64,000 nt of DNA, taken from NCBI RefSeq assembly GCF_056746865.1, contig NZ_CM163382.1. One strand, written 5' to 3'. Position numbers and translations under genes: made by a program. This document shows positions 10,638 through 54,060 of the stretch, one piece after another. A model generated the notes under the pieces. The model was not told the origin of the DNA. It worked only from the letters and a program-made list of their open reading frames with translations, and made no database searches. The first letter of the stretch is position 1, and every line of letters starts with the position of its first letter.

Positions 10638-10951
10638 CCTCTTCTCCTTTCGAGAGTCAGTGGTACGTCTGAAATCGGTCAGACGCGATGCATTGCTCTG
10701 AAAGCATAGACGGGAAATATGAGTTTGCTGTGACCATGAAATTTTTCGACTGAACGAAGCGTATGAAATTTGTGTTAGATCAATAAAAACAATCAGATGA
10801 GATTAATCGTCTCTCCAGCATTAGCGTTATGAATGAGTAATATAAATCGATAATACCTCAGCTGCGATATGCGCGTATTTTCACCCATTGACAATGTTTT
10901 TGGCGGTGGCATGATGCGCATGAAATTTGAACTTCCTCACGGTTTTAATTC

Positions 10952-13740: not shown

Positions 13741-13906
13741 TTATTGTGGTCGGTGACGCTGACTCTGGCAGATCTGACCCGTTTTTACATAATCGAGAAA
13801 TGCGCGTAAGCCGCAGGACATATACTGGCGGTTTGGGTAATACATTTGGAAGCTGTGCTGTAAGGGCGTTAGAAATAGAGCTCTGAATTATTTATGCAGA
13901 GCGGAA

Positions 13907-13940
13907 TAAAAAAGCGGCAACTCAAAAAAGTTGCCGCTTT
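13907..13940 (-). terminator. Rho-independent terminator downstream of pflA
   Basis: Hairpin gcggcaac-tcaaaaaa-gttgccgc; on the minus strand the stem is followed by TTTTTTATT. Confidence 0.7.
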
Positions 13941-13949
13941 ACGGGGAAA

Positions 13950-14690
13950 TTAGAACATTACCTTATGACCGTACTGCTCAAGAATGCCTTTCACGCGTTC
14001 CATGGTCTCTTTCTTCGGTGGTTTAACACCATCAAGTTTGTATTCTTCACCCATCGCCACCCATTTGTGTTTGCCAAGTTCGTGGTAGGGGAGAAGCTCG
14101 ATTTTCTCAACGTTGCCCATATCACGGGTAAATTCACCGAGGCGATGCGCTGAATCGTCATCGTCAGACCAGCCTGGGACAACAACGTAGCGGATCCACA
14201 CCTTCACATTTTTGTTCGCCAGATATTTGGCGAACTCCAGCGTGCGGTGGTTGGAAACTCCAACCAGATTTTGGTGGATCTCGTCGTTCATCTGTTTGAG
14301 ATCGAGCATTACCAGGTCGGTTACTTCCAGCAGTTCATCAATCACCGGATCGTAACGACGAACAAAACCGTTGGTATCCAGACAGGTATGAATGCCTTCT
14401 TTTTTGCAGGCGCGGAACCAGTCACGAACAAACTCAGCTTGCAGGATTGCTTCACCGCCGGATGCGGTAACGCCGCCGCCGGAAGCGTTCATAAAGTGGC
14501 GATAGGTCACCACTTCCTTCATCAAATCTTCAACGGTAACTTCTTTACCGCCATGCGTGTCCCAGGTGTCGCGGTTATGACAATACAGGCAGCGCATCAG
14601 GCAGCCCTGGAAAAAGGTGATAAAGCGAATACCCGGGCCGTCTACGGTTCCACAGGATTCAAAGGAGTGAATGCGACCAATAACTGACAT
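13950..14690 (-). CDS. pflA: Pyruvate formate-lyase activating enzyme (radical SAM)
   Basis: 246 aa [23 protein letters not shown]...; CxxxCxxC motif; the ORF-track start at 14717 is an upstream extension. Confidence 0.95.
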
Positions 14691-14811
14691 TGCGGTGTTT
14701 CTCCAGATGTGGCCCATCTGAGGCCGTGTTGGTGCGCAGCTCGAAGGCTACGTCGAGTCTGTTTTGGCAGTCACCTTAAAGTATAGATAGCTGACAAAAA
14801 AGGCTCTCGTG

Positions 14812-14881: not shown

Positions 14882-17164
14882 TTACATAGATTGAGTGAAG
14901 GTACGAGTAATAACGTCCTGCTGCTGTTCTTTAGTCAGCGAGTTGAAACGTACTGCGTAGCCAGATACACGGATGGTCAGCTGCGGATATTTTTCCGGGT
15001 TTTCCATCGCGTCGAGCAGCATTTCACGGTTCATCACGTTAACGTTCAGGTGCTGACCACCTTCGATGGATGCTTCGTGGTGGAAGTAACCATCCATCAG
15101 ACCAGCCAGGTTGGTCTTACGAACTTCGTCGTCTTTACCCAGTGCGTTCGGAACGATAGAGAAGGTGTAGGAGATACCATCTTTAGCGTAAGCAAACGGC
15201 AGTTTAGCAACGGAAGTCAGAGAGGCTACTGCACCTTTCTGGTCACGACCGTGCATCGGGTTAGCACCCGGTCCGAACGGCGCGCCAGCACGACGACCGT
15301 CTGGGGTGTTACCAGTTTTCTTACCATACACAACGTTAGAAGTGATGGTCAGAACAGACTGAGTCGGGATAGCGTCACGGTAGGTGTGCAGTTTCTGAAT
15401 TTTCTTCATGAAACGTTCTACCAGGTCAACAGCCAGGTCATCTACACGCGGATCGTTGTTACCAAACTGCGGGTATTCGCCTTCGATTTCGAAGTCGATA
15501 GCCAGACCGTCTTCGTCACGAATCGGTTTAACTTTCGCATATTTGATTGCAGACAGGGAGTCAGCAGCAACGGACAGACCAGCGATACCACACGCCATGG
15601 TGCGGATAACGTCACGGTCGTGCAGCGCCATCAGAGAGGCTTCGTAGCTGTACTTGTCGTGCATGTAGTGGATGATGTTCAGTGCAGTGATGTACTGTTT
15701 AGCCAGCCAGTCCATGAAGTGATCCATGCGCTCCATCACTTCATCGTAGTTCAGGAGATCGCCTTTGATCGGTTCAGACTTCGGACCAACCTGCATTTTC
15801 AGTTTTTCGTCAACGCCGCCGTTGATTGCGTACAGCATGGTTTTCGCCAGGTTTGCACGCGCACCGAAGAACTGCATTTGTTTACCAACGATCATCGGGC
15901 TTACGCAGCAAGCGATAGCGTAGTCATCGTTGTTGAAGTCCGGACGCATCAGGTCATCGTTCTCATACTGCAGAGAAGAGGTGTCGATGGACACTTTAGC
16001 AGCGAATTTCTTGAAGTTCAGCGGCAGTTTTTCGGACCACAGAATGGTCATGTTCGGTTCCGGAGACGGACCCATGGTGTACAGGGTGTTCAGGAAACGG
16101 AAGCTGTTTTTGGTAACCAGGGTACGACCGTCGAGGCCCATACCACCGATAGATTCGGTTGCCCAGATCGGGTCGCCAGAGAACAGTTCATCGTATTCCG
16201 GAGTACGCAGGAAGCGAACCATACGCAGTTTCATGACCAGGTGGTCAACCATTTCCTGCGCTTCTTGTTCGGTGATCTTGCCAGCTTTCAGGTCACGTTC
16301 GATGTACACATCCAGGAAGGTGGAGGTACGACCGAAGGACATTGCAGCACCGTTCTGAGACTTAACAGCAGCCAGGTAGCCGAAGTAAGTCCACTGGATA
16401 GCTTCCTGAGCGTTGGTAGCCGGACCAGAGATGTCGTAGCCGTATTTCGCAGCCATTTCTTTCATCTGACCCAGAGCGCGGTGCTGTTCAGCGATTTCTT
16501 CGCGCAGACGGATAGTCTGTTCCAGGTTTACGCCGTTTTCCAGATCAGCCTGCAGAGAGGTGAACTGTGCAAGTTTGTCTTTCATCAGGTAGTCGATACC
16601 GTACAGCGCAACGCGACGGTAGTCACCGATGATACGACCACGGCCATAAGCATCTGGCAGACCGGTCAGAACACCGGATTTACGGCAACGCAGGATGTCC
16701 GGAGTGTAAACGTCGAACACGCCCTGGTTGTGAGTTTTACGGTATTCAGTGAAGATTTTTTTGATCATCGGGTCCAGTTCGCGGTTGTACGCTTTGCAGG
16801 AACCTTCGATCATTTTGATACCACCGAACGGGATAAGAGCACGTTTCAGCGGAGCTTCAGTCTGCAGACCAACAACTTTTTCCAACGCTTTGTTGATGTA
16901 GCCAGCGTCGTGAGAGGTGATGGTGGAAGCAACAGCGGTGTCAAAGTCAACTGGCGCGTGAGTGCGGTTTTCCAGTTTAACGCCTTCCATTACTTTGTCC
17001 CACAGGGTGGTGGTCGCTTCAGTAGCGCCAGCCAGGAAGGACTCGTCACCCTCGTACGGAGTGTAGTTTTTCTGAATGAAGTCACGGACGTTTACTTCAT
17101 TCTGCCAGTCACCTTTGGTAAAACCTTCCCAGGCTGTGGCTAACTTTTCATTAAGCTCGGACAT
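14882..17164 (-). CDS. pflB: Pyruvate formate-lyase (formate C-acetyltransferase 1)
   Basis: 760 aa; C-terminal glycyl-radical motif RVSGYAV. Confidence 0.97.
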
Positions 17165-17218: not shown

Positions 17219-18076
17219 TTAATGGTGATCGTTTTCACGCAGGTAAATGACCCAGTATGTCAACCCAACCAACAAACCACCGCCGATAATATTACCGATC
17301 GTAACCGGAATCAGGTTATCAGTGATGAAGTTCATTACGGTCAGGTGAGAAAAATTTTCCGGTGCAGAACCGACAGCGGTCCAGAATTCCGGAGATGCGA
17401 AGTCGCGGATTACAATACCCATCGGGATCATAAACATGTTTGCGATACTGTGCTCAAAACCGCTGGCAACAAACATCGCGACCGGCAGCACCATAATGAA
17501 CGCTTTGTCCATCAGGCTGCGGCCAGAATAACTCATCCATACTGCCAGACATACCATCAGGTTTGCCAGGATACCAAGACAGACGGCCTCAATAAAAGTA
17601 TGGTGCACTTTGTGGTCGGCGGTTTGTAGGACGTTGAGTCCCCATTGACCATTCGCGGTCATATACTCGCCGGAAAGCCACATTAAAAGTACAAACAGCA
17701 GTGCGCCGACCAGGTTGCCAAAATAGACATTTAGCCAGTTTTTCGCCAACTGACCCCAGGTGATGCGCCCACTCGCCTTAGCAACAACAATCAACACTGT
17801 GGAAGTAAAGAGATCGGCTCCGCAGACAACACAAAGAATCAGCCCCAGAGAGAAGCAAATACCGCCAACCAGTTTTGCCATGCCGAAGGGCATTGTTCCT
17901 GTGCCAGTGGTTGCTGTGATATAGAAGACGAATGCGATTGAGATGAAAACACCGGCGGTAATCGCCAGATAGAAAGTCTTAAGCGGATGTTTCGTTGCTT
18001 TATAGACACCTGCCTCTTCGGCCACTTTGGCCATTGCTGCAGGAAGTAAAAGATCAAAAGGGTTGTCAGCTTTCAC
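17219..18076 (-). CDS. focA: Formate channel FocA
   Basis: 285 aa from (V)KADNPFDLLLPAAMAKVAEEAG...; start assigned to GTG at 18076-18074 to match the canonical FocA N-terminus. Confidence 0.9.
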   Translation of the reverse strand: MKADNPFDLLLPAAMAKVAEEAGVYKATKHPLKTFYLAITAGVFISIAFVFYITATTGTGTMPFGMAKLVGGICFSLGLILCVVCGADLFTSTVLIVVAKASGRITWGQLAKNWLNVYFGNLVGALLFVLLMWLSGEYMTANGQWGLNVLQTADHKVHHTFIEAVCLGILANLMVCLAVWMSYSGRSLMDKAFIMVLPVAMFVASGFEHSIANMFMIPMGIVIRDFASPEFWTAVGSAPENFSHLTVMNFITDNLIPVTIGNIIGGGLLVGLTYWVIYLRENDHH

Positions 18077-18136
18077 ACTAACTCTCTCTTTATTAAGTCG
18101 GCGACGAGATACTAACAAAGCATTATAGATGAGAAA

Positions 18137-18150
18137 TTGATATAGATCAT
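18137..18150 (-). promoter_or_regulatory. Candidate FNR site in the focA-pflB promoter region
   Basis: TTGATatagATCAT, near-perfect TTGAT-N4-ATCAA palindrome about 65 bp upstream of the focA start within the 400-bp AT-rich region 18077-18481. Confidence 0.45.
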
Positions 18151-18481
18151 ATCTCGCCTGGCTTATAGGCCCGTAACTCGCATGGTTTTTATGCAAATAC
18201 GGAGTAAATATTTGATTATCCAAATAAAAATAAATTTTAAAAATTAACAAATGAGTTGAATTTTTTCCGCATCCTCCGCTAAAACAGTTAATTAAAAGGG
18301 AGCATCAGGCGAATAAAGTAACAATATCGATCGTATTTATTAAATACAAATTACCGATATTTAACTTTATAATTACAATTATTTTATTAATGCAAATATA
18401 TGTAAAGCGGGGCATTAAAAAAACGCCCCGTAATATAACTCAGACGAATCATTAAGCCTACATTGCGTAGGCTATTTGATT

Positions 18482-20242
18482 TTATTTTGCCCAGAATGCT
18501 GCTTTGGCGCGCTGCAGCTTTTCGTAGGCCTTCAACAACGACTGATGTGCAGCAAACGCGTGCAGATCGCTATCTACTGGTTGCAAACCATAAAACGCCG
18601 CTTCGCCGCTCATTGCCGCACTGGCGGCTTCCACGGCATCTGCGCCGTACATGCGAACAAACGCATTCAGATATTGCAGCGGCTGGCGATCTTCTTCCTG
18701 CGCCAGTAATAACAACGTTTGCAGGCAGCGATAATAGTTGGCGCGTTCCGGGCTGAATACCGATGAGTTAAACTCCATCGTCCATTCGGTCCAGACCAGA
18801 GCCTGTTCCAGATCGCCACCAGCCAGCGCCAGCATGGCTTTTAATTCACCGATACGCAGGGTGTACCAACCGTTATCCGACCCGGTCGCCAGACCCAACA
18901 GCTCACGCACGCGGGTAAAGTCATCAAAACCTTCTTCATCCAGTTGCTCGATGAGGTTCAGGTAATCTTCTTTTTCCCACTCGCTGCCTGGTAACGAAAG
19001 AATCGTTTCACGTAAATGGCTGCCCATACTGTTATTCGCCAGCCACAGATCTTCAGCCGGATAAATATCGGACATGCCAGGTACGATAATTCTGCATGCA
19101 TAAACGCCCAGATGCTCGTAATCGGCAATATAAACTTCTTTATCTTCTTTGTTGAAGATAGCCATCAGCGTAGCAAACTCTTCTTCCGTAGTGCCGGAGA
19201 AATTCCAGTCCACAAACGGATAATCGGCATCCTGCTTGAACAGATCCCAGGAGATTAAACCGCTGGAATCGATAAAGTGCGTTTCGAGGTTGGTATGTTC
19301 AGCAACTTCTTCATCATCGAAGGTTGGCGGAGTAAACACATCCAAATCTTTCAGGCCACGACCTTGCAGCAGCTCGGTCACGGTACGTTCCAGTGCTACG
19401 CCAAAATCAGGATGTGCACCGAAAGAGGCAAAGCAGGTGCCGTTAGCAGGATTGAACAGTACCACGCAAATCACCGGATACTGGCCGCCAAGCGAACCAT
19501 CATAAGCAAAGATTGGGAAACCTTCTGCTTCCAGCGTTTCGATGGCTTCAACCACCGCTGGGTAACGCGCCAGCACGTCTGCCGGGATTTCCGGCAAGCT
19601 GATGCTTTCAGCAATAATGCGGTTTTTCACGTAGCGTTCGAAAACTTCGGACAACCCCTGAACGCGTGCTTCGTTGCGGGTATTGCCAGCGGACATACCG
19701 TTAGAAACGTACAGGTTACCAATGATATTCATCGGAATATAAACGGTCTGATTGTCGGACTGGCGCGTAAACGGCAGACCGCAAATACCACGATCTTCGT
19801 TACCGGATTGCAGGTCAATCAGCATACTGCCGGCCAGTTCATTCTCCGGATCGTAAAATGCGCGCAGACGGTCATCGAGCAGCCCTTCTGGCACATCGTC
19901 ATTTTCGCTCAGTGGGAACCATTTTTCGTTGGGATAATGCACGAACGGACCGTTGGCGATGGTTTCGCCCAGCCAGAAATCAGCAAAAAAGTAGTTGGTT
20001 GAGAGACGCTCGAAATATTCACCGAGTGCAGAAGCCAGCGCCGCTTTTTTGGTTGCGCCTTTACCGTTGGTAAAACACAGTGCGCACTCTTTGTCGCGAA
20101 TATGTACAGACCAGACGTTAGGCACCGGATTCAGCCAGGAGGCCTCTTCAATCTGAAAGCCGAGGTCTGAAAGTTTTTGCTGGAAGCGAGCGATGGAATC
20201 TTCCAGTGCGGCATCTTTGCCGGGGATAAATGTTTGCGTCAT
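18482..20242 (-). CDS. ycaO: YcaO-domain protein (ribosomal protein S12 methylthiolation accessory factor)
   Basis: 586 aa from MTQTFIPGKDAALEDSIARFQQKL...; the ORF-track start at 20275 is an upstream extension. Confidence 0.9.
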   Translation of the reverse strand: MTQTFIPGKDAALEDSIARFQQKLSDLGFQIEEASWLNPVPNVWSVHIRDKECALCFTNGKGATKKAALASALGEYFERLSTNYFFADFWLGETIANGPFVHYPNEKWFPLSENDDVPEGLLDDRLRAFYDPENELAGSMLIDLQSGNEDRGICGLPFTRQSDNQTVYIPMNIIGNLYVSNGMSAGNTRNEARVQGLSEVFERYVKNRIIAESISLPEIPADVLARYPAVVEAIETLEAEGFPIFAYDGSLGGQYPVICVVLFNPANGTCFASFGAHPDFGVALERTVTELLQGRGLKDLDVFTPPTFDDEEVAEHTNLETHFIDSSGLISWDLFKQDADYPFVDWNFSGTTEEEFATLMAIFNKEDKEVYIADYEHLGVYACRIIVPGMSDIYPAEDLWLANNSMGSHLRETILSLPGSEWEKEDYLNLIEQLDEEGFDDFTRVRELLGLATGSDNGWYTLRIGELKAMLALAGGDLEQALVWTEWTMEFNSSVFSPERANYYRCLQTLLLLAQEEDRQPLQYLNAFVRMYGADAVEAASAAMSGEAAFYGLQPVDSDLHAFAAHQSLLKAYEKLQRAKAAFWAK

Positions 20243-20371
20243 GAAAATCACTTTAGTCGTACGGAAAGCGCGCAATAATACGGGTTTTATCTCAAAGGCG
20301 CTATCACCGCCGCCATGCCGATGAACTGTTGACTATGCTTTTAGTGGATAAACCACGATAAGAGCATAAAA

Positions 20372-49332: not shown

Positions 49333-50421
49333 TTAGAACTGGTAAACGATACCCACAGCTACGGTGTCGTCAGAACCTACGCCCAGTTTGTTGTCAGAAT
49401 CGATCTGGTTGATGATGTAGTCAACATAGGTGGACATGTTTTTGTTGAAGTAGTAGGTTGCGCCCACTTCAAAGTAGTTCACCAGATCAACATCACCGAT
49501 ACCTTCTACGTCTTTCGCTTTAGATTTGGTGTAAGCGATGGACGGACGCAGACCGAAATCGAACTGGTATTGCGCAACTAACAGAACGTCTTGCGTTTTG
49601 TTGGCGAAGCCGCTGATGTTTGTAAATTTATTAGTGATCGGCGTAGCGTTACGGGTTTCACCGTAGTTCGCTGCCAGGTAGATGTTGTTCGCGTCATACT
49701 TCAGACCAGTAGCCCACTGTTCAGCTTTTTTACCGTTGCCAAGAGGTTGAGCTTCTTGCAGGTTGGTACGGTCAGCGGCGCCATAAGCACCAACGATACC
49801 AAAGCCTTCGTATTCGTAGCTGATAGAACCGCCAACACCGTCGCCGTTAGAGCGGCGTGCAGTGTCACGCTCGTTTTTACCCAGGTACTGAACAGCGAAG
49901 TTCAGGCCATCAACCAGACCAAAGAAGTTGGAGTTACGATAGGTAGCAACGCCGCCAACACGACCAACGAAGAAGTCATCGCTGTATGCAGTATCACCAC
50001 CAAATTCTGGCAGCATATCGGTGTAACCCAGTGCGTCATAAACCACACCGTAGTTACGGCCGTAATCGAAAGAACCAACGTCAGCGTATTTAAGACCCGC
50101 GAATGCCAGACGCGTTTTGTTACCAGTTTGAGCGTCAGCGCCTTCAGAGTTGTTACCCTGGAAGTTATATTCCCACTGACCATAACCGGTCAGATCGGAA
50201 TTGATTTGAGTTTCCCCTTTAAAACCAAGACGGGCATAGGTCATGTCGCCATTGCCACCGTAACTGTTTTCACCGTTACCCTTGGAGAAATAATGCAGAC
50301 CGACAGCTTTACCGTACAGATCTACTTTGTTGCCATCTTTGTTATAGATTTCTGCAGCGTTTGCAGTACCTGCTACTAACAGAGCAGGGACGATCACTGC
50401 CAGAATATTGCGCTTCATCAT
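49333..50421 (-). CDS. ompF: Outer membrane porin OmpF
   Basis: 362 aa [38 protein letters not shown]...; C-terminal ...VGIVYQF. Confidence 0.97.
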
Positions 50422-50544
50422 TATTTATTACCCTCATGGTTTTTTTTATGACACCTGCCACTGCCGTCAATAAGTTCTGTCAATAAAAATTTACGGAACT
50501 ATTGATGAGAGTTTGGTGTCTTTATGTGTCTGCAGGCATCTTTC

Positions 50545-50640
50545 CATTCAAACTAACGTTTCGCTACCGTGAAAGTGCTACATAGATAAAGATTTGGTTT
50601 CAAAAAGAAAAAATATGTAACTAAAAGTAAAAATTAAGGA
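50545..50640 (-). promoter_or_regulatory. ompF promoter-proximal OmpR-binding region (F1-F3 boxes)
   Basis: Minus-strand reading gives TTTACTTTTaGTTACATATTTTTTC...GAAACCAAATCTTTATCT..., matching the ompF OmpR-box region as I recall it. Confidence 0.55.
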
Positions 50641-50981
50641 ACTTTGTGAACACCGTCATATTTCCATAGAGGCGTGATGATATTTACAGCAATTTTTATC
50701 TATTTATATGATTTCCTTATATTTAAATTAACTAAACGGAAATTTTGTTTCTGATGGAAACTTTATCGACCTGGCACAAAATCCTCTTTCAGACATCCAG
50801 AATGCCAAAAAATAGTATGAAAATTGTGCTATCAGCTAAGAAAAAACTAATCCGCAATAAGAATGCGGGTTATTTTTTGTGCGTAAATGTTGCAATGTAA
50901 TATTCCGTAACAGGATGATCGTTATGGCGGGGTTGCAAATAGATTGCTTGACTTAACAAACAGATAACTTGACAGAAAGGA

Positions 50982-51010
50982 TAAAAAAAGAGCCAGCGGG
51001 TGCTGGCTCT
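50982..51010 (-). terminator. Rho-independent terminator of asnS
   Basis: Hairpin agccagc-gggtgc-tggct with an A-run on plus (T-run on minus) immediately 3' of asnS. Confidence 0.7.
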
Positions 51011-51023
51011 TGAAGACGCTAAA

Positions 51024-52424
51024 TTAGAAGCTGGCGTTACGCGGAGTACGTGGGAACGGAATCACATCACGCACGTTTTGCACACCAGTTACGTAAGCAA
51101 TCAGGCGTTCAAAACCAAGACCGAAACCGGAATGCGGAACAGTACCGTAGCGACGCAGATCGCGATACCACCAGTAATCTTCTTTATTCAGGCCCATTTC
51201 CAGCATACGCTCGTCCAGCACGTCCAGACGTTCTTCACGCTGGGAGCCACCAATGATCTCACCGATGCCCGGAGCCAGAACGTCCATAGCCGCAACGGTT
51301 TTACCGTCTTCGTTAAGGCGCATATAGAACGCTTTAATATCTTTCGGATAGTTTTTAACCACTACCGGTGCTTTAAAGTGTTCTTCCGCCAGATAACGCT
51401 CATGCTCAGAAGAGAGATCAACGCCCCAGTAAACTGGGTTTTCAAACTTCCTGCCGCAGTTTTCGAGAATAGTCACTGCGTCGGTGTAATCCACCTGCGC
51501 AAAATCGGCTTCAATGAAGCGTTCCAGACGTGAAACGGCATCTTTATCTACGCGTTCAGCGAAGAATTTCATGTCGTCAGCGCGTTCTTCGAGAACCGCT
51601 TTGAAGACATATTTCAGCATGGCTTCAGCCAGACCCGCGATATCGTTCAGGTTAGCAAACGCCACTTCCGGCTCCAGCATCCAGAATTCCGCCAGGTGAC
51701 GGCTGGTGTTGGAGTTTTCAGCACGGAAAGTCGGGCCGAAGGTATAAATTTTGGACAATGCGCAAGCGTAGGTTTCGCCGTTCAACTGGCCAGATACGGT
51801 CAGGAAAGACTCTTTACCAAAGAAGTCTTTGTCGAAATCCACTTTGCCCTGATCGTTACGCGGCAGGTTTTCCAGATCCAGCGTAGAAACGCGGAACATT
51901 TCGCCAGCCCCTTCGGTATCAGACGCAGTAATCAGTGGCGTTGAAACCCAGAAGAATCCCTGCTCGTTAAAGAAGCGATGCAGCGCCTGCGCCAGCGTAT
52001 GGCGAACGCGCGCGACGGCACCAATCAGGTTTGTGCGCGGACGCAGGTGAGCGACTTCACGCAGATACTCAATGCTGTGGCGTTTTGCCGCCATCGGGTA
52101 AGTGTCTGGATCTTCAACCCAACCAGCAACTTCAACCTTGCTGGCCTGAATTTCAAATTGTTGCCCCTGGCCCGGCGATGCCACGACTTTACCCGTCACA
52201 ATGACCGAGCAACCGGTGGTCAGACGCAGGACGTCTTCATTGTAATTGGGCAGAGAATTATTGATGACAGCCTGTACAGGATCAAAGCAGGAACCGTCAT
52301 AAACGGCGAGGAAGGAGATGCCAGCTTTTGAATCTCGGCGGGTACGTACCCATCCGCGCACGGTGACTTCGCTGTCAACGGCTACGCGGCCCTGGAGTAC
52401 GTCGGCTACAGGCACAACGCTCAT
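51024..52424 (-). CDS. asnS: Asparaginyl-tRNA synthetase
   Basis: 466 aa from [26 protein letters not shown]...; the ORF-track start at 52469 is an upstream extension. Confidence 0.95.
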
Positions 52425-52592: not shown

Positions 52593-53795
52593 TTAACTGG
52601 CTTTTTTAATATGCGGAAGGTCGAACGCTTTGCGCAGCGCCCGAACAAACGCTTTATCGTGGCAGATAGTTTTGCCAGGGCTGTCAGAAAGTTTCGCCAC
52701 CGGTTTACCGTTACACTCTACCAACTTAATGACAATATTCAGGGGTTTTACCTGGGGGATATCGCAGGTCAGGCGAGTCCCAATACCAAAACTTAATTGC
52801 ACGCGGGAAGAGAAGTGGCGGTATAGCTCAACCGCTTTGCGTAAATCCAGATTGTCAGAGAAAACCAGCGTTTTACTCTGTGGATCAATTCCCAGCTTCT
52901 CATAATGTGCAATGGCTTTTTCACCCCATTCAACCGGGTCGCCGGAGTCATGACGCAGGCCCTGATAGCGACTGGCGAACTCGACACCGAAATCACGCAG
53001 GAAAGCATCCATAGTGATGCAGTCGGTTAATGCAATGCCAAGTTGGTCGGGATATTCTTCCAGCCAGGCAGCAAGTGCAGCTCGCTGGCTGTTGGCAAGA
53101 TCCGGACTGATTTGCTGATGCGCCTGGAACCATTCGTGTGCTTGTGTTCCCATTGGCGTGAGGGAAAGCCGACGCGCCAGATCGTAGTTGCTGGTGCCCA
53201 CGAACCAGGATTCCTGTTGCAGACGTTTCACGATGGTTTCTTGTACTTCACGAGAAAAACGTCGGCGGGTGCCAAAATCCATCAGATGGAAGCGCGACAT
53301 ATCAAGACCGGCGGTTAATGCCGAGAAATCGGCTAATTTGCTTTCCAGCGTGTCGAGGGCTTGCGCAACGTCGGCCTGCGGTGAGCGATAGCGATGTACC
53401 ATTTCACTGATAACCGCCAGCAAAGGAACTTCCCAGAGGATGACTTCACGCCACGGGCCGCTTAAACGAATATCCAGCTTGCCATTATCGTTGGACACGG
53501 TGACTTGTTCCGGGTTAAAGCGGAACTCGCGTAGCCAGTTAAGATAGTCGGCCTTAAAGAAAGGCAGGGCTGAGAGCCATTGATATTCATCATCCTGCAG
53601 GCGCAGGTGCTGCATCGCCTGAACCTGTTCACGAATAGCATCGGCATAAATACCCAGCAGATCGTCACCTCGGCAACGAAACTCCGCCGCGACATGCACA
53701 TCGTAATAGTGATGAAACACGGCTTGCTGCATATGCAACTTATAAGCATCTGTATCCAGCAACGAGTGCAGAACAGGAGAAGCGAATTGTGTCAT
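52593..53795 (-). CDS. pncB: Nicotinate phosphoribosyltransferase
   Basis: 400 aa from [31 protein letters not shown]...; the ORF-track start at 53843 is an upstream extension. Confidence 0.95.
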
Positions 53796-53842: not shown

Positions 53843-54060
53843 TCTTCAGGAACTGCTGGAGTATACCTTGTTTCGCAATTTATTGAACCCCGATCACACC
53901 ATATGCCACCTTTCTGGTCGATGGCATTACGCGGTGTATGTTATAAAAATGTAGCAATAAAGGCGTTTGTACCTGAAAAGATGAAGATTCTGCATAGCGC
54001 GATTTACGCAACAGGAATAGACTGAACACCAGACTCTATCAAAGATGCTAAAGGTTATTT

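Follow-up and report, generated by a model that had tools for sequence, protein, structure and literature searches.

Regulatory architecture and cross-species conservation of the focA-pflB control region in Escherichia coli

The interval between ycaO and focA is, with high confidence, the control region of the Escherichia coli genes for the formate channel and pyruvate formate-lyase, focA-pflB, for which a mechanism involving FNR, ArcA and IHF is proposed here. The region is well studied: it is one of the classic E. coli regions in which several promoters and regulators govern the response to lack of oxygen, and it hardly differs here from K-12. As a discovery this matters little, since a known control region has been found essentially unchanged. 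The main use of the case is calibration, because a sequence-only reading of the DNA had placed the main FNR site, the limits of the spacer and the GUG start of focA to the base. Cross-species comparison adds a map of the bases that are under constraint, and these include an initiation region in which even synonymous positions are kept.

Throughout, the window denotes the whole 64,000-nucleotide stretch of DNA that was analysed, and published positions were transferred by the relation window = U00096.2 coordinate - 935613. The open reading frames of pflA, pflB, focA and ycaO lie on the minus strand, and ycaP and serC come next after ycaO on the plus strand (Table 1). The limits of the spacer are exact: its first base follows the focA start and its last precedes the ycaO stop. 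Likewise, 405 bp separate focA (b0904) from ycaO (b0905) in K-12 MG1655, and 403 of these 405 bases are identical in the window. The two differences are an A instead of G at 18366 and a C instead of A at 18446; the latter falls between the two ycaO-proximal hairpins, and no functional difference is expected from either. When a 561-bp query across the interval was compared with complete E. coli genomes, 5425 of 5426 gave matches, always in the context of ycaO on one side and focA on the other. Position between ycaO and focA, the pflB-pflA pair downstream and near-identity to K-12 all identify the orthologue of the K-12 region, just as the sequence-only reading had it. That reading had also named checks, namely the alignment with K-12 and matrix scans for FNR, ArcA and IHF sites; the alignment, the FNR and ArcA matrix scans and a consensus scan for IHF were run. 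As a side observation, strain 118UI carries a prophage beside pflB that is absent from the window, and this strain was rejected as a proxy for the window's surroundings.

Table 1 Features of the focA-pflB control region and its flanking genes, in window coordinates
Feature	Position	Strand	Remark
pflA	13950-14717	-	ORF reading
pflB	14882-17164	-	ORF reading
focA	17219-18076	-	ORF reading
First 26 nt of focA	18076-18051	-	identity 1.00
Near-invariant 86-nt block	18051..18136	-	core promoters, whole short 5'UTR, weak SD, focA nt 1-26
focA GTG (GUG) start	18074..18076	-	within GUGUG (18078..18074)
ycaO-focA intergenic spacer	18077..18481	-	focA-pflB promoter-regulatory region; 405 bp, 30.9% G+C
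Core promoters and short 5'UTR	18136-18077	-	mean identity 0.96
Purine-rich weak SD AAAGAGAGAG	18091..18082	-	inside the 86-nt block
TAGTAT, -10-like	18109..18114	-	candidate class II FNR promoter (P6); invariant in 77 sequences
TATAAT, perfect -10	18122..18127	-	FNR-independent overlapping promoter; mapped start A18113, 5'UTR 37 nt
FNR site 1, TTGATATAGATCAT	18137..18150	.	top matrix match, published ChIP, conservation
Block GGGCCTATAAGCCAGGCGAGAT	18151..18172	-	mean identity 0.93; between FNR-1 and the upstream half-site
Exact IHF consensus WATCAANNNNTTR, sequence AATCAAATATTTA	18205..18217	-	candidate; the TTGAT half is part of its core
Weaker FNR-like motif TTGATTATCCAAAT	18212..18225	.	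one perfect half-site only
Upstream SD GGAGG	18273..18277	-	-201..-197; candidate uSD
AGTTAATTAA	18286..18295	+	nearly invariant, ArcA-like
ArcA multi-direct-repeat site	18336..18389	-	published site, matrix, conservation
ArcA core box TTGTAATTATAAAGTTAA	18378..18361	-	repeats TGTAA / GTTAA / GGTAA, 11 bp apart
Far-upstream sigma-70 promoter TTTACA-17-AATAAT	18406..18378	-	predicted start ~18371 (-295)
ycaO intrinsic terminator hairpin CGGGGC...GCCCCG	18408..18430	-	read from sequence
Second hairpin AGCCTAC-N5-GTAGGCT	18455..18473	.	just past the ycaO stop; terminator-like call on + strand; conservation 0.54
ycaO	18482-20275	-	ORF reading

Which bases of this spacer are constrained? A FocA-based scan with one genome per species yielded 80 Enterobacteriaceae loci, with Salmonella, Citrobacter, Klebsiella, Enterobacter, Kosakonia, Kluyvera, Atlantibacter, Pluralibacter and Mangrovibacter among the genera. 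From these, 480 nt upstream and 60 nt of coding sequence were aligned for 77 sequences including the window itself, and identity to E. coli was computed per position, with the third codon positions of focA (0.60) as a neutral yardstick. The resulting footprint is an independent map of the constrained spacer bases derived from sequence alone, and all conservation values given here come from it. It includes a near-invariant block of 86 nt that joins the core promoters to the start of the coding sequence.

Directly upstream of this block lies FNR site 1 (FNR-1), a palindrome that the sequence-only reading had placed at its exact coordinates. It agrees with TTGAT-N4-ATCAA at 9 of 10 positions, a level reached by only five positions in the window and expected by chance with a frequency of 0.036 in a simulated 405-bp region of the same composition. 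We compiled the 62 ChIP-bound sites of PMC3688515 Table S6 other than that of focA into a weight matrix, under which the palindrome scores 16.8 bits and ranks first of 63,987 positions in the 64-kb window. Its half-sites (18150-18146 and 18141-18137) show identities of 1.00 and 0.99 across the 77 sequences, and two positions of the intervening spacer (18145-18142) fall to about 0.7. Occupancy is documented in the literature: Myers et al. (PMC3688515 Table S6) list one matrix-level FNR site at focA, at 953750 or window position 18137, with the identical 14-mer, a PatSer value of 14.37 and a positive ChIP signal; the entry reads 'None' where ChIP enrichment of IHF, H-NS or Fis known from other work would be noted. 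A gene table of the same study gives 0.145 for focA and 0.21 for pflB, values that we take to be fnr-mutant/wild-type expression ratios. A second data set places an Fnr ChIP region at 953406-954037 and labels it 'Activation, Known' (PMC3974632).

A promoter with a mapped start and a predicted one overlap between FNR-1 and the gene. Kim et al. (PMC3415461) mapped a focA start at 953726 (U00096.2), which is window position 18113, with the upstream sequence ...CATCTATAATGCTTTGTTA, and report further starts upstream of focA as well as inside focA, upstream of pflB. Their table, from cultures taken as aerobic, holds no start near 18102; at this promoter pair it has 18113 only. For the TAGTAT element (18114..18109), the sequence predicts a start at about G18102. 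From this predicted start, the centre of FNR-1 would be located at -41.5, the distance of a class II promoter, whereas the mapped start belongs to the overlapping TATAAT promoter. We take the latter, with its start at A18113, to be the FNR-independent P6A and the TAGTAT promoter to be the FNR-dependent P6 in the nomenclature of Kaiser and Sawers from 1997.

At the other end of the spacer, a scan of 17900-18700 returned TTTACA-17-AATAAT as the only sigma-70-like match. Its -10 element lies inside the ArcA site, and outside E. coli its hexamers are poorly conserved (0.58 and 0.46). The identical hexamers are listed as a constitutive RpoD promoter of focA-pflB on the basis of genomic SELEX (PMC3946193), and Myers et al. 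(PMC3688515) report two anaerobic sigma-70 ChIP peaks, at 954032 (window 18419) and 953695. Close by is the intrinsic terminator hairpin of ycaO, which in other genera has the classical form with a T-run behind it, for example GGGGCAA..TTGCCCCTTTTTT in Enterobacter; the 5' arm together with the preceding GAGTTATATTA has a mean identity of 0.84. The far-upstream promoter, the terminator and the upstream GGAGG discussed below had gone unmentioned in the sequence-only reading. Its broader picture of a multi-promoter region under FNR, ArcA and IHF control fits the published ChIP data for FNR and ArcA and the several published starts; for IHF the support comes from sequence and conservation.

For ArcA, Park et al. 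(PMC3798270) described a ChIP peak and a site of four direct repeats at 953949-954002, corresponding to window positions 18336-18389, with an 18-bp box ttgtaattataaggttaa of 16.7 bits. In our scan with a leave-one-out matrix, the core box reached 17.4 bits and ranked second of about 128,000 positions in the window. With at least two TGTTA-like repeats at a spacing of 11 bp and a high matrix score, the element has the make-up of an ArcA operator, and conservation follows the repeats: the cores TGTAA, GTTAA and GGTAA (within 18377-18351) have identities of 0.94, 0.99 and 0.82, and the bases between them vary. One of the two differences from K-12, at 18366, affects the first position of the third repeat: the K-12 base gives a score of 16.96 bits and the base found here 17.38 bits. 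The A found here is the commoner base in other genera, and the window thus restores it relative to K-12. A further ArcA-like element, AGTTAATTAA, overlaps the block TTTTAATTAAC (18297-18287), which has a mean identity of 0.95. It fits what we take to be the classical ArcA consensus, WGTTAATTAW. It is also included in an ArcA motif call AAACAGTTAATTAAA at 953895-953909, window positions 18282-18296 (PMC3974632), and in the same work Federowicz et al. found ArcA and Fnr ChIP regions that cover the spacer.

How should the second, weaker FNR-like motif be understood? The sequence-only reading had reported it at the correct coordinates, 75 bp from FNR-1, but neither matrix score nor conservation supports it as a second FNR palindrome. 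As a dimer site it matches at 6 of 10 positions, scores -2.6 bits and ranks 554th in the 64-kb window; the spacer has 24 further positions that match equally well, and 73% of the simulated regions contain a perfect half-site. One half, TTGAT, is conserved at 0.93 and the other, CAAAT, at 0.62, so that two recognisable and conserved halves are not found, and the motif has no entry among the published FNR matrix sites (PMC3688515 Table S6). A dimer site of this quality is no better than chance, so that a picture of two FNR palindromes is unsupported by the sequence alone. The same bases overlap an exact match to the IHF consensus, one of only four on both strands of the 64 kb, in which the WATCAANNNNTTR core is accompanied by an A/T-rich tract on its 5' side. 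Identity is 0.93 for WATCAA, 0.44 for N4, 1.00 for TTR and 0.96 for the AT tract (18224-18240). Since the conserved bases follow WATCAA-N4-TTR and the AT tract, the weaker motif is most likely part of a putative IHF site. Two observations speak against IHF: the same bases have elsewhere been called an ArcA motif, GTAAATATTTGATTA, at 953817-953831 or 18204-18218 in the window (PMC3974632), and the neighbouring FNR-1 has no recorded overlap with IHF ChIP signal (PMC3688515 Table S6).

The strongest competing account is that the weaker motif is a genuine FNR-2, placed about 41.5 bp upstream of promoter P7 (-10 TAAAAA at ~18191-18186, start at ~18178). If so, the region would carry a pair of class II FNR promoters separated by 75 bp. 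A lower-affinity FNR-2 is said to have been footprinted upstream of P7, by Sawers in 1993 and by Kaiser and Sawers in 1995, and the position of the weaker motif is presumably that of this low-affinity site; in the arrangement that we attribute to the Sawers laboratory, IHF lies between FNR-2 and ArcA. The perfect and conserved TTGAT half speaks for this account, as do the 75 bp between the two centres and the A-rich -10-like sequence at the right distance, and the Fnr ChIP region 953406-954037 covers the motif (PMC3974632). The matrix score and rank, the crowd of equally good 6/10 positions and the less conserved CAAAT half argue against it, and Myers et al. (PMC3688515) list just one matrix site and one FNR peak summit for focA. 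Moreover, conservation is low (0.67) across the proposed -10 and start of P7, and the pattern of conserved positions is closer to WATCAA-N4-TTR than to a palindrome. We regard a genuine FNR-2 as a real possibility, though one we lean against; the IHF and FNR-2 readings are not mutually exclusive. On the favoured IHF reading, the motif would be a single TTGAT half-site within an IHF-like element and could at most serve the promoter next upstream as an FNR site of low affinity. It then serves as an example of a chance match in AT-rich DNA, of which the one conserved half is probably the site of another protein.

We now turn to the start of focA itself. Translation from the GTG at 18076, which the sequence-only reading had called for to obtain the canonical FocA N-terminus, gives MKADNPFDLLL... 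and a product identical to the E. coli FocA crystal structure (PDB 3KCU) over 285 of 285 residues. All 79 Enterobacteriaceae loci with a recognisable N-terminus have this GTG, always as GTGTG, and the K-12 annotation uses the GUG start as well; the codon is thus in frame, yields the canonical N-terminus and is conserved across relatives. A scan of the focA strand found no Shine-Dalgarno (SD) match of at least 4 nt near the start, and focA is among the E. coli genes with a gtGTG start and no SD of at least 4 nt (PMC9841429). According to a 2025 preprint (bioRxiv 10.1101/2025.04.04.647229), focA starts at GUG, the start region gives a toeprint of the 30S subunit that depends on initiator tRNA (tRNAi), and mutating the weak SD near the start abolishes expression. 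The coding sequence itself is constrained here: none of the first eight third-codon positions falls below 0.96, focA has no longer run of this kind, and only 15% of its third positions reach 0.95. The 86-nt block runs through the first eight codons without synonymous change in more than 70 species.

That focA instead begins at the in-frame ATG of codon 15 (MAKVAEEAG, 18034), the start given to an annotated K. pneumoniae focA of 816 nt, is very improbable. The proposal has in its favour that ATG is the commoner start codon, that the GTG is preceded by no SD of at least 4 nt and that Klebsiella focA is annotated 42 nt shorter. Yet the GTG and the 14 codons that follow it are kept in 79 of 79 species, residue 3 of the Vibrio FocA (3KLY) aligns to residue 4 of the query, and the first 26 nt show no variation even at third positions, which is the pattern that an initiation region should have. 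An SD-like sequence upstream of codon 15 is absent, and both the tRNAi-dependent toeprint and the loss of expression on weak-SD mutation, reported in the preprint cited above, point to the GTG. The two starts are distinguished by their N-termini, (M)KADNPF for GTG and (M/fM)KADNPFDLLLPAAM for Met15.

Could RNA structure explain the unusual start? A structured or sequestered initiation region as the reason for the GUG was considered and rejected, as the 84-nt leader and initiation region of the short transcript are less structured than shuffled sequences (z = +1.6). No Rfam family was found in the spacer or focA at E values up to 1.

A second ribosome-related signal lies far upstream. GGAGG at -201 is the only SD-like match of at least 5 nt on the focA strand of the spacer, and its conservation of 0.76 stands out from flanks of 0.36-0.44. 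The preprint (bioRxiv 10.1101/2025.04.04.647229) describes a tRNAi-independent upstream 30S site at focA that begins at -213 on its 5' side and depends on a "strong, conserved" SD, and an upstream-SD mutation that lowers focA-lacZ about 10-fold. Judging from its position, GGAGG is probably the upstream SD (uSD) of this published site. The constraint that our footprint highlights at the nucleotide level, on focA codons 1-8 and on the GGAGG at -201, is in line with that 30S-seq work. The upstream SD is present only on transcripts that start upstream of 18289 and absent from the short FNR-dependent ones; long transcripts would be made when RNA polymerase starts at the far-upstream promoter or reads through the ycaO terminator. 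An upstream ORF at this SD (ATGCGG..., 11 codons) was discarded, because no gap separates its ATG from GGAGG and the ATG lacks conservation, with column identities of about 0.1-0.2. In the minimum-energy fold of the long E. coli 5'UTR (z = -2.7), the segment 18310-18281, immediately 5' of the upstream SD, pairs with the initiation region. That a 30S subunit at the upstream SD opens this helix was likewise rejected: the pairing probability is 0.37 in the window and 0.0 in a second E. coli, and its median over 77 species is 0.

The marked AT-richness of the region, noted in the sequence-only reading, is real: G+C is 30.9% in the spacer and 51.1% in the 64-kb window, only 0.05% of all 405-bp segments are equally AT-rich, and the minimum of the window (30.4%) starts at 18083. 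Hardly credible at all is the idea that the spacer is odd-composition DNA, H-NS-silenced or horizontally acquired, and that its FNR-like palindrome is a chance product of this composition: the most AT-rich 405 bp of the window would indeed be expected to hold TTGAT-like words more often, as the 73% of simulated regions with a half-site illustrate, but a 9/10 palindrome is rare even there (0.036), FNR binds the site in vivo in K-12 and no H-NS overlap is recorded for it (PMC3688515), the spacer occurs in 5425 of 5426 complete E. coli genomes, and it is syntenic across about 77 Enterobacteriaceae species with conservation shaped like motifs.

Taken as the focA-pflB control region, the interval probably works as follows. 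In the absence of oxygen, dimeric FNR binds the near-perfect palindrome at 18137-18150 and, centred 41.5 bp upstream of the predicted start at ~18102, would activate RNA polymerase at TAGTAT in class II fashion. The bound protein would at the same time cover the -35 region of the overlapping FNR-independent promoter (TATAAT, start 18113), which may supply the aerobic basal level. Phosphorylated ArcA binds the 11-bp-spaced repeats at 18336-18389, AGTTAATTAA at 18286-18295 is a probable further target, and an IHF-type bend in the AT-rich stretch, for which 18205-18240 is the best candidate, may bring the ArcA complex to the downstream promoters. A long 5'UTR would arise from the constitutive far-upstream promoter or from ycaO read-through, and its GGAGG at -201 may capture 30S subunits and boost initiation. 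Finally, the SD-poor GUG (18076) within GUGUG may keep FocA low relative to PflB.

A bolder combination is also conceivable: the weaker motif might be an IHF core, or a composite in which IHF competes with a low-affinity FNR half-site, and at the same time the 86-nt block (18051-18136) might be a post-transcriptional element that acts with the SD at -201 to drive initiation at GUGUG. We consider this combination unlikely; if true, it would add a translational layer to the textbook transcriptional switch.

Comparison with known systems helps to place these observations. The closest relative is the K-12 focA-pflB region upstream of b0904, which shares with the window the flanking genes, the 405-bp length and 403 of 405 bases, and is identical in the FNR 14-mer, the IHF-like core, TATAAT and TAGTAT, the upstream GGAGG and the GTG start. 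The promoter of yfiD (grcA), a gene related to pyruvate formate-lyase, has two FNR sites plus ArcA, and co-regulation by FNR and ArcA is a trait it shares with focA. Its two matrix-level FNR sites lie 53 bp apart, at 2714579 and 2714632 (PMC3688515 Table S6), and both are strong (17.25 and 13.87), whereas focA has one strong site and a second that is a half-site. Unlike at yfiD, ArcA binds at focA far upstream, via a multi-repeat site. On the translational side, focA resembles the ribosome standby sites known from tisB, with a strong GGAGG about 200 nt upstream of an SD-poor GUG and without a conserved start codon next to it.

The first codons of focA stand out within the gene. Across the 73–77 species compared, synonymous variation is nil in the first 26 nt (18051–18076, codons 1–9). 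Every third position of codons 1–8 shows an identity to E. coli of at least 0.96 in the Enterobacteriaceae alignment, compared with a gene-wide mean of 0.60, and these codons form the longest run of third positions in focA that is conserved to this degree. Because the third positions are near-invariant here, the comparison indicates that the initiation region is under constraint at the nucleotide level.

The focA start codon also bears on how the gene has been annotated elsewhere. In Klebsiella, focA is listed with a length of 816 nt (K. pneumoniae KPN_00932; PMC3415461, supplementary file 6), a length that fits initiation at Met15 (window position 18034). The GTG and the 14 upstream codons are nevertheless kept in the four Klebsiella loci L017, L018, L020 and L026, and the 816-nt annotation is, judged from these sequences, likely a start-site misannotation.

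The ycaO–focA spacer itself appears to be seldom interrupted. In 5423 of the 5426 complete E. coli genomes, a single location accounts for 80% or more of a query covering 18077–18481, so insertions in the spacer appear to be rare among sequenced isolates. Besides this spacer, 50303–51041 is the sole stretch of the 64-kb window in which 405-bp windows fall under 36% G+C. Just past the ycaO stop lies a hairpin whose + strand tail is ATTTGATTTT, while its tail on the ycaO strand is poor. From its sequence, it may act as a bidirectional terminator, or it may halt antisense transcripts that come out of the focA control region.

Weight-matrix scores over the whole window also place high-ranking FNR and ArcA matches outside the spacer, which are collected below together with the other features. 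The best ArcA box lies 350 bp from the second-best FNR match and maps to K-12 position 989551, on the border of an ArcA ChIP region that PMC3974632 attributes to pepN/pncB.

Features located in the window outside the focA coding region
Feature	Coordinates	Strand	Description
ycaM–pflA junction	13741–13949		between the ycaM-like ORF (ends 13740) and the pflA stop (13950)
Hairpin just past the ycaO stop	18455–18473	+	reads as an intrinsic terminator, antisense to ycaO
Top ArcA-box match	53938–53955	+	ATGTTATAAAAATGTAGC, 17.7 bits
Second-best FNR match	53580–53593		TTGATATTCATCAT, 14.3 bits
Third-best FNR match	10770–10783		TTGTGTTAGATCAA, 14.2 bits

The surroundings of the operon vary between strains. 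In strain 118UI (NZ_CP032515.1, 1094500–1102500), one end of a P2-like prophage with genes for tail sheath, tube, tape measure, gpD and ogrK lies about 320 bp from pflB, and the distance between pflA and pflB in that genome is about 32 kb; the window lacks this prophage. On the pflA side, ycaM directly adjoins pflA in the window, whereas in K-12 ycaN and ycaK sit between them. Since a junction-spanning query is at least 80% covered in 4356 of the 5426 complete genomes, the arrangement seen here, rather than that of K-12, may be the common one.
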